From Micropepsaceae bacterium (GTDB lineage Bacteria; Pseudomonadota; Alphaproteobacteria; Micropepsales; Micropepsaceae), in assembly GCA_046153995.1 (NCBI GenBank), contig JBJXEH010000065.1, positions 1,891-65,890 on the forward strand: a DNA stretch of 64,000 nucleotides, in the 5' to 3' direction. The notes under the pieces are model-generated. The model was given only the letters and a program-made list of their open reading frames with translations, was not told the origin of the DNA and did not search any database. Every line of letters starts with the position of its first letter. The first letter of the stretch is position 1. Shown piece by piece: positions 23,654 to 26,632 of this stretch. Position numbers and translations under genes: made by a program.

Positions 23654-26632
23654 TCAGCCGAACTTCGCGGTGATGTGACGGAAATAGGCGTCTGCATCGA
23701 GGCCTTTTCCCGTGACGCGTGTGACGAGGTCCTCGGTCGGCACGCGATCGCCCGCGCTGTAGACATTGTCGCGCAGCCAAGTGCGAAGCGGGGTGAAGTC
23801 GCCAATCGCGATTTGCTCGTCGAGCTTGGCGGTCTTTGCGTAGGTCTCGGTCAGCTGCGCCGCGTAGAGGCTGCCCAGCGTGTAGGTCGGGAAGTAGCCG
23901 AACATGCCGGAGGCCCAGTGACCGTCCTGTAGGACGCCGGTGAGGTCGTCGGTGGGCTTGACGCCGATAAGCGTGGCACTGCGTTCGTTCCACGCGTGCG
24001 CCAAGTCCGCGACCTTCAGGTCGCCCGCGATCATCGCAACCTCGAGCTCGTACCGCAGTACCACGTGCAGATGATACGAAATCTCGTCGGCCGAAGCGCG
24101 GATCAGGCTTGGCCGCACGCGGTTTGTAGCTTGGAAAAGCTTTTCCGCATCCAAGTCCTTAGCGGCCGCACCAAGAGTTTCGCGAATGCGCGGGAACAGG
24201 AAGTTCCAGAACGCGCGGCTGCGGCCAACGTGGTTCTCCCAAAGGCGCGCTTGCGCCTCGTGCATGCCCATTGAGGGCGCTTGCGCCAGCAGTGTCGCGC
24301 GGTCCTGCGGTGCCAGGCCTTGGTCGTAGAGGCCATGGCCACCTTCGTGCAGCGTGGTCAGGATTGCTTCGAGAAGGTCGTCGTTGTTCGGCCGAAGTGC
24401 TAGGCGAACGTCGTCGAACCCAAGTGCGGTCGTCCCGGGGTGTGTGGCGCGGTCGAGATGGCCGCGGGTGAAGTCGAAGCCAATGACTTCGAGCACCTCG
24501 TTGCAGACTTCCCAGAGCTTCGCGTCGGGAATGTCTCGTGTTACGCCGTTCGGCCATGACGCTGTTTTCTTCCCCGCAGCCTGAACCATCGGCACGAGGC
24601 GCGCGCGGAGGTCGTTCAGCACGGGCTCCAAGCGCTTGCGCGTCATGCCGGGTTCGTATTCGTCGAGCAGGATATCGTAGGGGTCTGCGTCTGGGTCGAT
24701 TGCCTTCGAGGTTTCGCCGGCAACGGCGACGAGTTCGGCGAGCGCGGGGGCGAGCAGCTTGAAATCATTCGCCTCGCGGGCGTCTTCCCATGCTGCGGTG
24801 GCGCGGGCGCGCGCGGCGGCGTAGGCGCGTACCAGATCGGCCGGGATCGCAAGGTCGCTGGAACGGAGGTCGCGTAGGAGTTCTATCTCCCGGCGCCAGC
24901 GTTCGTCGCCTTCGCGAGCCACCGCCACCTCTTCGATCAGGTCGCCGAGGTGATCTGAGGTCAGCAGACCGTGGCGCGCGGCCTCGAGTGTTGCGAGTTG
25001 CTCGCCGCGTTCGTCGCGCCCGCCGTCAGGCAGGATCGTTTCTTCGTCCCATTCGAGAAGCGCGATCGCGTTGTCGAAGTGTTGTAGTTCGCCGATCTTG
25101 GCGCGGAGCGCTTCTTCGGCGCCGTCGCTGCGGCCGCCTTGCGAGCGTTTTGGCACGCGCAGTTCGCGTGGCGGATGCGCGACGAGAACGGCTGCCATGC
25201 CACCATGCTGGGCGACATTGACGACCTGTTTCTGGCTAACGCGGCACATGATTCCGAGGCCATTTTCGGTCGGGGCGAAGCCCATGACAGCGTAGAACGG
25301 CTCGGCGAACACCCGGCCGTCTTTGCCCACAATCGGGAATTCGTGCACGGGCAGGCGCGTCGCCTTTTGCACCACCCAGTTCTCTTCGGTGTCGGCCGTG
25401 TTTGCGACGGCTTCGTCGATGAGTTTTTCCCAATCGGCCGCCGGCGTGGAGGCACCGATGGTGACGCCCTCGCCACCGTAGGATCGGTTTGGCTTCATCA
25501 CGAGTTCCTCGCGGTGCAGGCGCATATACTCGAGCAGGTCGCCCTCGACGTTGTGGGGAAGCGTCGTTTTGCGGTCGCCCACGATACGCGTCCAAAGCAC
25601 ATGACGGCGGAATAGGCGGCATTCTTCAGCGCTAAAGTATTTTTCGGCGATAGCGGGGTCGGTCAGGACTTCCCAACAGCTTTTATGGTCGAAGTCGCCG
25701 ACTAGCGAGGAGACGATGCGGTTCTGTTTGAAGAGGTGGCGCATCGCCTCCAGCGGGTGCCCAAGTTCTTCTTCGAGCTCGATGAGGTCGCGGACTTCGT
25801 AGTCGCGGTAGGCGACATCGACGCACTCGTCGCCGTAATAGACGTCGCCGTCCTTCATACGCAGTTCGCTGGGGTCGGCGTGTGTGATCGTGAGGTTGTG
25901 GCGCTTCGCCAGATATCCGCTAAGGACCGATTGTTCGTTGATGCCATCTTCGGCGTATTTCGGTTCGACGAAGCTCAGCCGGCATTTGGTCCGGCCGAGC
26001 GCACGAGCGTGGTCGATCAGGACTTGGATGAACAAGTCGCGTTGGTCGCGCGGCATCTCGATCCTGAGCGCAGGGTCGTGATCGAGAAGCGTCGGCACGA
26101 TATCGCGCATGACCAGTTGCTCGGCGAGCGGGGCGTAGTTGATGCCGCCGACGCCGGAGAGGTTTGCTTCCATGAAGTGCAGCGTGTCTTGCCAACCCGC
26201 CGCCGTGAAATCGCACACGGCGTCCAGGCGGCCGTAGACTGTGTTGTTGCGCTCGTGTGCGGGTGTCCATGTATCGCGCAACCAACTCTCCTCGCCCGGC
26301 GTGATCGCGATGACGTGCTTCACCTGCGGATCGTTTAGGTACAACGACGGCAGGCGTTTTAATGCGTCGGTGAGGCGTTGGCAGACGTGTTGGACGTATG
26401 CCAGTTGCTCATTCATGGCGAGCAGCGGGCGCAGCATTACGGGGATAGGCTCGAACTTTCCGTCGCGTTCGTAGGTGAACTCGTTCTTTTCCGAGTCGGC
26501 GCGGATGCGCTGGCCAATTTGGGCGAATGTCAGGTCGTTGATGTGGCCCGCAGCCTTGCGCACCCGGCTATCCAAGGAGGCGCCCGCGAGGCCCAGCGTT
26601 TCGTTCGGACTGAGGATGTGTGGCGTCGTCAT
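23654..26632 (-). CDS. Fusion protein: N-terminal ATP-grasp-like domain (aa 1-485) plus C-terminal M32 carboxypeptidase (Taq-type, aa 505-992)
   Basis: M32 motifs: HPG (731), HEGGH (762-766), [11 protein letters not shown] (790-800), [13 protein letters not shown] (844-856), [20 protein letters not shown] (901-920). N-terminal half: [17 protein letters not shown] (377-393), [15 protein letters not shown] (419-433), [25 protein letters not shown] (460-484), which resemble ATP-grasp ligase strands. No signal peptide. Confidence 0.8.
   Translation of the reverse strand: [992 protein letters not shown]

Follow-up and report, generated by a model that had tools for sequence, protein, structure and literature searches.

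A carboxypeptidase gene with a ligase-like N-terminal half

We analyzed a 64,000-nucleotide (nt) stretch of DNA from a Micropepsaceae bacterium (GenBank assembly GCA_046153995.1, contig JBJXEH010000065.1), referred to below as the window, and describe a gene within it that joins a predicted ATP-grasp ligase domain to a carboxypeptidase of the M32 family. From the list of open reading frames (ORFs) and their translations, the interval 23654..26632 of the minus strand is one unbroken ORF of 992 codons with an ATG start at 26632, whereas the plus-strand frame of the same interval is riddled with stop codons. An earlier reading of the bare sequence (the original prediction) had reported a single ORF of 992 amino acids (aa) at 23654-26632; the intact frame stands, and the strand, which needed stating, is minus. 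The motifs that it listed all lie at the residues given for them (HPG 731-733, HEGGH 762-766, 790-800, 844-856, 901-920, 377 onwards, WVVQKA 419-424 and 464-478). It also saw no signal peptide; none is obvious in the N-terminus by inspection of the translation alone, and the fusion protein is predicted to be cytoplasmic. A scan for promoters and terminators around the gene gave nothing over the shuffled expectation, and the PADLOC defence-system models gave no match. The gene contains the following features.

23654..26632, minus strand: whole fusion gene, 992 codons plus the stop codon at 23654-23656 (ORF list, translation)
25163..26617, minus strand: N-terminal domain, residues ~6-490, predicted circularly permuted ATP-grasp ligase with a glutathione-synthetase-like fold (AlphaFold2 (AF2) model, Foldseek)
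26144..26176, minus strand: motif at residues 153-163, candidate Mg2+/ATP-site E155-x-N157 on a beta strand, then GG (conservation)
25466..25498, minus strand: motif at residues 379-389, strand with K380, then a glycine-rich loop (conservation, alignments)
25109..25162, minus strand: inter-domain linker, residues ~491-508 (alignment, AF2 predicted local distance difference test (pLDDT))
23660..25108, minus strand: C-terminal domain, residues 509-991, complete M32 (carboxypeptidase Taq family) metallopeptidase by match to PF02074 and PDB alignments
24335..24349, minus strand: HEGGH, residues 762-766, predicted zinc-binding and catalytic motif (alignment to 7a03 and 3hq2)
24251..24262, minus strand: HEAQ, residues 791-794, with the predicted third zinc ligand E792 (alignment to 7a03 and 3hq2)

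The C-terminal half matches M32 carboxypeptidases from end to end

The Pfam Peptidase_M32 model (PF02074) matches residues 509-991 over model positions 2-489 of 489, with an E-value of 5.5e-156 and 520 bits against a cut-off of 25.1. The same half aligns end to end, at 35-45% identity, with solved M32 enzymes (7a03, E 6e-104; 3hq2, 3hoa, 5giv, 1k9x and 3dwc). In these alignments, HEGGH at residues 762-766 pairs with HEGGH/HECGH of 7a03 and 3hq2, and HEAQ at 791-794 pairs with their HESQ. Across 75 full-length fused orthologues, H762, E763, H766, E792, R845, D849, H905, W906 and Y917 are invariant, while position 793 varies (S/A/C/G). The accessory motifs of M32 enzymes are HPF, DxRxT, I/NRxxA/SD and GxxQDxHW. 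IRASAD, LQDGHW (within GVLQDGHW) and GYFPTY are present in the window protein. HPF is changed to HPG in 24 of the 75 orthologues and DVRxT to DVRLA in 17, the subclade of the window protein being included in both sets; these are non-ligand positions, and the other fused orthologues keep HPF and the T of DVRxT. The full-length PF02074 match and the end-to-end alignments bear out the M32 identity proposed in the original prediction, and indicate that the C-terminal half is a full M32 carboxypeptidase and a genuine member of the family. The 933-aa protein P0196 displays a further M32 architecture, in which the M32 domain lies at residues 292-784 between N- and C-terminal extensions unrelated to the ligase.

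The N-terminal half is predicted to be a circularly permuted ATP-grasp ligase

No Pfam or NCBIfam model matches residues ~6-490 at its cut-off, and NCBIfam returns nothing at all. CP_ATPgrasp_2 (PF14403) scores 20.9 bits against the N-terminal half (cut-off 32), over residues 366-430 and model positions 280-340 only, and 17.2 bits, under the gathering threshold, against the full-length protein. Within a set of 78 family members, PF14403 matches 51 at E<0.01, mostly under the curated cut-off (best E 2.5e-8), and CP_ATPgrasp_1 (PF04174) matches 12 at E<0.01. These two are the sole sequence models that detect the ligase domain. A phmmer search of the N-terminal half against the PDB gave only noise, and the profile of the ligase family reached 3n6x (‘putative glutathionylspermidine synthase’) and 9cjn (Cp1B) at E 0.1-0.3, at the Lys/Gly-loop strand; glutathione synthetase was absent from the PDB sequence searches with both queries. 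A sub-profile of the E-x-N region gave spurious matches only. Comparisons of the family profile with E. coli YgiC and Gss by hmmsearch and hhalign were not significant, with an hhalign probability of ~1%. More than 2000 homologues of the N-terminal half were found, mostly stand-alone proteins of 490-505 aa labelled ‘hypothetical protein’. The ligase family is a divergent sister group that lies outside the coverage of the PF14403 and PF04174 models.

The AF2 model of the N-terminal domain, calculated from the family alignment, has a pLDDT of 88.5 and a predicted template modelling score (pTM) of 0.88. On searching the PDB with this model using Foldseek, the top group (8fbz, 1m0w, 2hgs, 3kal, 5oes and 9cjn) consisted of eukaryotic-type glutathione and homoglutathione synthetases together with Cp1B, matched at E ~1e-14 with template modelling (TM) scores of 0.56-0.64 over ~500 columns. 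E. coli YjfC (7uk6) and YgiC (7uka) followed at E 4e-11 to 1e-8, and the glutathionylspermidine (2io7) and trypanothione synthetases at E ~1e-7. All 41 best matches belong to the circularly permuted branch of the ATP-grasp enzymes (E 8e-15 to 1.5e-5, ~440-570 columns, query-normalised TM 0.40-0.64), whereas classical ATP-grasp enzymes (synapsin, Ddl, LysX/ArgX) were matched weakly (E 1e-4 to 1e-3, TM ~0.2). Since strong, full-length matches were confined to the permuted branch, the model assigns the N-terminal half to the circularly permuted ATP-grasp ligase fold of the glutathione-synthetase/glutathionylspermidine-synthetase type. The original prediction had suspected an ATP-grasp ligase and had proposed testing this permuted type, and the structural searches agree with it on both counts. 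Its likening of the protein to RimK and tubulin tyrosine ligase needs correcting: both of these are classical, non-permuted enzymes, and the nearest folds are those of glutathione synthetase, Cp1B, YgiC/YjfC and glutathionylspermidine synthetase.

We examined conservation in the 75 fused orthologues together with the 78 family members, which are mostly stand-alone. E155, N157, V161, G162 and G163 are invariant, and K380, P381, N382, G386, G387 and G389 are 100% conserved; D137, R276-D277, N304-R305, D315-H316-K317, Q422, E444 and N472 are also invariant in the ligase domain. Residues 379-389 align with the equivalent strand and loop of 3n6x and 9cjn, and the segment VVKPIFSREG of YgiC was aligned to the same place without significance. 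From the motif pattern, we infer that E155 and N157 may be the counterparts of Glu144 and Asn146 of human glutathione synthetase, in which Glu144 is a Mg/ATP-site residue (PMC10106969). The invariant residues of the ligase lie where an ATP-grasp site is expected, namely on the ExN strand and on the Lys strand with its Gly-rich loop.

These data bear on whether the N-terminal domain has an ATP-grasp fold without catalytic activity, serving in nucleotide sensing, oligomerisation or substrate recruitment in what is otherwise a plain M32 carboxypeptidase. Such a domain would fit with the lack of any ATP-grasp sequence model at cut-off, with the unproven equivalence of its residues to known active sites, and with the public annotation of the full-length proteins as ‘carboxypeptidase Taq’ or ‘carboxypeptidase M32’. 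However, the ligase half is more conserved than the M32 half (mean pairwise identity 0.69 versus 0.60; 146 versus 105 near-invariant positions), and the invariant charged and glycine residues at the expected ATP-grasp positions are common to thousands of stand-alone homologues. On account of this conservation pattern, we consider a dead domain to be very improbable.

The fusion is conserved as a unit

A GTDB scan with one genome per species identified 476 relatives, of which the best 80 were examined. These 80 match the query over ~residues 1-992 at 54-95% identity. An intact ORF of ~985-1020 aa is found in roughly 70 of the 79 genome loci, and the junction is colinear and gap-free in 13 metagenome proteins. 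Close relatives bear the label Micropepsaceae, and the nearest of all (95%) is entered as ‘Alphaproteobacteria bacterium S-RSF-IL-04’. Overall, the labels of the best 80 comprise Micropepsaceae and other Alphaproteobacteria, Methyloceanibacter, Planctomycetaceae, Udaeobacter/Verrucomicrobiia, Polyangiales/Myxococcales and Gammaproteobacteria. The genomes that carry the fusion are mainly from Alphaproteobacteria and Planctomycetota, and all are metagenome-assembled genomes (MAGs). Fusion genes also occur under the MAG labels ‘uncultured Flavobacteriaceae’ (L005, L006, L007, L008, L011, L059 and L074), ‘uncultured Bordetella’ (L058) and ‘Candidatus Kuenenia’ (L029, L047). Identity to the window gene reaches 86-91% among those labelled ‘Flavobacteriaceae’, which makes the taxon labels look unreliable.

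The linker has a length that is constant within one residue in all orthologues, and a mean identity of 50% in the 75-orthologue alignment. The AF2 model of the full-length protein (pLDDT 91.7, pTM 0.58) consists of two well-folded domains and a disordered tether, with linker residues 494-500 at pLDDT <50. Pairwise identities of the two halves correlate across the 75 orthologues (r = 0.90). Taken together, the intact ORFs, the fixed linker length and the co-divergence of the halves indicate that the fusion is genuine, conserved and selected as a unit.

A single locus, L084, carries the halves as separate overlapping ORFs, as might be expected if two genes had been joined elsewhere by a lost stop codon or a frameshift in assembly or sequencing. 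L084 is the exception, and differs by a single extra base in the linker, set against ~70 independent assemblies with an intact ORF of 985-1020 aa and a linker conserved at the protein level. The original prediction had called for a check on an assembly-made fusion, and these observations exclude one; we give an artefact practically no credence. The L084 gene itself (4539-7509 on a 269-kb NCBI contig) is a member of the fused clade in which the two ORFs overlap through that extra base (…PPQDLR-g-MPRRSP…). We considered it as a natural split form and rejected it because of the one-base indel in the linker; it stems either from a frameshift in sequencing or from a real secondary fission in which translation of the two ORFs is coupled.

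An exhaustive phmmer search against 1.84 billion cluster representatives found only two full-length fused clusters at 50% identity (P0121, P0122); in the same search, stand-alone M32 proteins were at most 45% and stand-alone ligases at most 48% identical. Clustering by the unweighted pair group method with arithmetic mean placed all 85 genuine stand-alone ligases outside the fused-ligase clade, at ≤58% identity, and four seeming exceptions proved to be pieces of fused genes or their frameshifted products. Among the M32 proteins, there is a genuine stand-alone subfamily (496-497 aa) that branches either beside the fused M32 domains or from within them. Deep-branching, divergent fused forms are encoded at L155 (1487-4657, 1056 aa) and L169 (519-3581, 1020 aa), which are 48-50% identical to the window protein in the ligase and 40-41% in the M32 domain, and by P0122 (1011 aa, 47% overall). 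A neighbour-joining tree of 124 dereplicated ligase domains gave bootstrap values of 86% for the main fused clade, 100% for L155/L169, and 47% for all fused forms together with one possible stand-alone protein, P0130. One ancient fusion is the simplest reading of this tree, and several events are also possible at a bootstrap of 47%.

In the original prediction, the architecture was not recognised as one already described. A literature search found no paper that joins M32, carboxypeptidase and ATP-grasp, or ‘circularly permuted ATP-grasp’ and carboxypeptidase, the Iyer/Aravind amidoligase survey lying outside its reach; the architecture is nevertheless not rare, being present in at least 80 species-level genomes. 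The Iyer/Aravind survey is said to have defined the CP_ATPgrasp families, and an earlier mention of the fusion there is possible.

Stand-alone ligases are repeatedly coupled to peptidase-family genes

Of the 80 metagenome loci that were fetched with the profile of the stand-alone ligase, 73 had a ligase ORF called. A gene of the PmbA/TldD family, ~450 aa in length, lies directly 3' of the ligase in 28 of these 73 loci (L110, L112 at 7989-10868, L113, L114, L144, L146, L147, L118, L119, L102, L106 and others), and many of the loci without a partner are on contigs too short to tell. The two genes share a strand everywhere except in L142, are separated by anything from an overlap to a ~140-nt gap in most, and occur in several different upstream contexts. 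The partner protein matches PF19289, PF01523 and PF19290; it has no HExxxH motif, and contains the invariant motifs FDCEG and STGHAQP.D..WDGP. In L133 and L141, the stand-alone ligase is divergently adjacent to a gene for a distant M32 protein (30-34% identity to the window M32). L141 thus provides a non-fused ligase-M32 pairing, with M32 at ~1-838 on the minus strand and the ligase at 985-2499 on the plus strand. No locus combines the two kinds of partner, TldD/PmbA being present in 28 and M32 in 16. Similarly, TldD/PmbA is found within 8 kb of the fused gene in 0 of 79 loci. The recurrent pairing and the mutual exclusivity indicate that coupling of the ligase family to peptidase-family genes has recurred, and it is at its tightest in the M32 fusion.

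Other genes were seen near members of the two families. An M42 aminopeptidase gene lies further downstream in ~10 loci, where it travels with Prs, STAS and MutS genes, and this association may be plain synteny. Small ORFs upstream of stand-alone ligases (L001, L002) were considered as substrates and rejected, as they encode weakly similar membrane proteins in syntenic genomes. In L103, two paralogous stand-alone ligase ORFs (507 and 494 aa) lie ~3 kb apart on the same strand of a 9.6-kb stretch. A gene for an AMP-binding (adenylate-forming) ligase overlaps the start of an M32 gene by 11 nt in L085 (4452-7491), L087 (3452-6491) and L088 (3452-6491), and the M32 proteins there belong to the stand-alone subfamily nearest to the fused M32 domains. 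We rejected this overlap as independent evidence because the three loci share one synteny block and amount to a single observation.

Genomic neighbours of the fused gene

We clustered the ORFs from the 79 fused loci to look for conserved neighbours. None was found, the best being common to 15 of the 79 loci, and those that recur resemble, by eye, housekeeping genes (KdpD-like, SDR, HtpG-like, MurJ-like and MFS). In the window, the gene is flanked by intergenic gaps of ~150 nt and 62 nt, and the surrounding genes are listed below.

18786-20090, minus strand: flavin amine oxidase (Pfam)
20132-21469, plus strand: MFS_2 transporter (Pfam)
21471..23591, minus strand: S46 dipeptidyl-peptidase, predicted to be secreted, downstream neighbour outside the system (PF10459; signal peptide)
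26784-27869, plus strand: arylesterase/SGL-like beta-propeller protein, divergent from the fusion gene (Pfam)
27856-28521, plus strand: Abhydrolase_11 protein (alpha/beta hydrolase; Pfam)
28565-30073, plus strand: MurJ flippase (Pfam)

The arylesterase, Abhydrolase_11, MurJ, MFS_2 and amine oxidase genes are conserved with the fusion gene only in close relatives. The S46 gene matches PF10459 with an E-value of 4e-223. Its maximal ORF, 21471..23993 on the minus strand, extends, in a different frame, across the final 340 nt of the fusion gene, and the S46 domain begins only at its residue 154. A GTG codon at 23591, 62 nt past the fusion stop, opens a typical Sec-type signal peptide (VRSLIAIAVAASAVAAAARA/DEGMW) and is probably the start of the gene. 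Longest-ORF calling would therefore mis-annotate it. The secreted S46 neighbour of the original prediction is thus recovered, with the signal peptide following the GTG. We rejected this peptidase as a functional partner since it is found near the fusion gene in 6 of 79 loci; the adjacency is lineage-specific and carries no information on function.

The neighbourhoods also speak to a scheme in which the fused protein makes a small-peptide natural product on a scaffold, the ligase building on the C-terminus of a carrier and the peptidase later freeing the product, in the manner of PEARL with TldD/E and a dipeptidase or of E-64, and without tRNA. There is precedent in the ammosamide ligase with its TldD/E-like protease and dipeptidase (PMC12424672), the stand-alone ligases adjoin a PmbA/TldD-family gene, and the top structural match Cp1B is a natural-product amide ligase. 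However, the 79 loci have in common no biosynthetic cluster, tailoring enzyme, transporter or precursor gene. The neighbours have, by eye, a housekeeping look, and the fused gene behaves like a solitary and widespread core gene. A natural-product role is, in our estimate, improbable.

A proposed bifunctional enzyme for C-terminal carboxylates

We propose, with a probability of roughly 60%, that the fusion protein is a bifunctional enzyme that acts on the C-terminal carboxylates of small peptides. By analogy with its relatives, the ligase domain would use ATP to turn a free carboxylate into an acyl-phosphate, the likeliest target being the alpha-carboxylate at the C-terminus of a small peptide, and would then join an amine (an amino acid or a polyamine) to it. 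M32 enzymes act on peptides whose carboxylate is free, taking residues off the C-terminus, and the M32 domain, as a zinc carboxypeptidase, would do the same here. Since the relatives of the ligase activate a carboxylate with ATP and M32 enzymes cleave at a free C-terminus, both domains may address the C-terminal carboxylate. The short tether of constant length would hold them on the C-terminal end of the same pool of small peptides. In the resulting scheme of sequential remodelling, M32 would trim the peptide, exposing or regenerating a carboxylate, and the ligase would extend or cap it. That both domains are active is supported by their candidate catalytic residues, both sets of which are intact and conserved in the 75 orthologues. 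We infer the substrate class, the acyl-phosphate step, and the sequence and sense in which the two activities are coupled. The trim-then-ligate order is slightly favoured over a make/break pair and over product release.

Several observations weigh against this proposal. The equivalence of the ligase active site to those of solved enzymes is not demonstrable by sequence, with Pfam matches below threshold, PDB matches at E 0.1-0.3, an empty sub-profile search and an hhalign probability of ~1%. The monomer model, with its pTM of 0.58, gives no defined inter-domain geometry; this value and the disordered tether mean that channelling, or a fixed geometry between the sites, is not supported. Across the 79 loci, no precursor-peptide gene or other conserved neighbour lies beside the fused gene (best 15 of 79). 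The PmbA/TldD-family partner of the stand-alone ligases, without an HExxxH metal motif, may not be a peptidase. Finally, if both domains acted on the same bond, they would run a futile, ATP-consuming cycle unless regulated.

One alternative is an opposing synthetase/hydrolase pair, the add/remove module of the original prediction, in which the ligase adds a C-terminal residue, M32 cleaves it, and reciprocal regulation sets the level of a metabolite. The structural relatives include the glutathionylspermidine synthetase family (2io7, E 1e-7), and E. coli gss sets a direct precedent, its ligase being joined to a hydrolase that undoes the ligation. Addition of an amino acid to a C-terminus would form the very bond that an M32 enzyme cleaves, and both active sites are strictly conserved. 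However, we see neither a regulatory element nor a redox-sensitive catalytic residue, the specificity of M32 enzymes is generally broad, and the stand-alone ligases pair with a different partner family. Nothing sets the opposing pair apart from sequential coupling, and we regard it as a serious but doubtful alternative to the C-terminal remodelling proposed above. The protein may instead be a self-contained, tRNA-independent editor, M32 removing the encoded C-terminal residue or residues of a specific cytoplasmic peptide or protein and the ligase adding a different residue or an amine to the carboxylate so exposed; this we think unlikely.

Implications

The components of the fusion protein are of kinds already known. 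What is new is the fusion, the ligase subfamily without a sequence model, and the recurrent peptidase-family partners. The analysis brings to light a family of glutathione-synthetase-like ATP-grasp ligases of more than 2000 proteins, nearly all ‘hypothetical’ and without a Pfam or NCBIfam model. One widespread clade, from at least 80 species-level genomes in several phyla, has the ligase permanently fused to a C-terminal exopeptidase, and other clades pair it with a PmbA/TldD-family gene. This guilt by association offers a testable handle on function, namely chemistry at the C-terminal carboxylate of peptides. It also follows that the database label ‘carboxypeptidase M32/Taq’ on proteins of ~990 aa hides half of the enzyme. 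If C-terminal remodelling holds, whether as trim-and-religate or as make-and-break, it would constitute a new bacterial form of ATP-dependent C-terminal peptide remodelling, to stand beside glutathionylspermidine synthetase/amidase, tubulin tyrosine ligase/carboxypeptidase and PEARL/TldDE. If the protein were an editor, it would do in bacteria what the tubulin detyrosination/tyrosination cycle does, and the more than 2000 stand-alone ligases with their PmbA/TldD-family partners would be previously unrecognised C-terminal remodelling systems.

Comparison with known systems

With peptidase family M32 (carboxypeptidase Taq; 7a03, Bacillus subtilis 3hq2, Thermus 3hoa, Pyrococcus 1k9x), the window protein shares HEXXH, the HExQ glutamate, IRxxAD, QDxHW and GYFPxY. 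The solved M32 chains that were matched are stand-alone proteins of ~490-510 aa, whereas the window protein adds a 500-aa N-terminal ligase. Its M32 subclade departs from the solved enzymes at non-ligand positions (HPF to HPG, DVRxT to DVRLA, HES to HEA).

The eukaryotic-type glutathione and homoglutathione synthetases (2hgs, 1m0w, 3kal, 5oes) provide the best full-length structural match to the N-terminal half, with the same permuted topology in the model, and that half has an E-x-N…GG strand motif and a Lys and Gly-rich loop. However, the identity in structural alignments is 13-15% and no Pfam or NCBIfam glutathione-synthetase model matches; the domain is related in fold and is not a member of the family. 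Homoglutathione synthetase joins gamma-Glu-Cys to beta-alanine (PMC12568646). E. coli YgiC (7uka) and YjfC (7uk6) and the fungal E-64 ligase Cp1B (9cjn) are also structural relatives, at E 4e-11 to 5e-14, and are stand-alone, carboxylate-activating amide ligases. YgiC and YjfC are peptidylpolyamine synthetases, that is, peptide-spermidine ligases, and Cp1B joins a carboxylic acid (epoxysuccinate) to an amino acid (PMC12568646). Unlike the window protein, these three are not fused to a peptidase, and their sequence likeness to its ligase is confined to the Lys/Gly-loop strand.

The biosynthesis of ammosamide employs a C-terminal ligase, said to derive from ATP-grasp enzymes, alongside a TldD/E-like protease and a dipeptidase (PMC12424672). 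PEARL/TldD-E clusters bring together a PEARL ligase dependent on aminoacyl-tRNA, a gene for the precursor peptide and a TldD/E protease. Their layout differs from that of the 79 fused genes, which have neither TldD/PmbA within 8 kb nor a conserved neighbour; beside the window gene, the intergenic gaps are only ~150 nt and 62 nt.

E. coli Gss (2io7) and trypanothione synthetase (2vob) combine a permuted ATP-grasp ligase and a hydrolase in one chain, as does the window protein according to its model. E. coli gss is annotated as a fused amidase/synthetase. The hydrolase of Gss is an N-terminal amidase, a cysteine domain of the CHAP type, whereas that of the window protein is a C-terminal zinc M32 domain by sequence, so that the order is reversed and the hydrolases are non-homologous. 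No similarity to Gss is found by hhalign, and Gss would be a functional analogue only. As such, it is the nearest conceptual precedent for a fused enzyme that both makes and breaks a bond.

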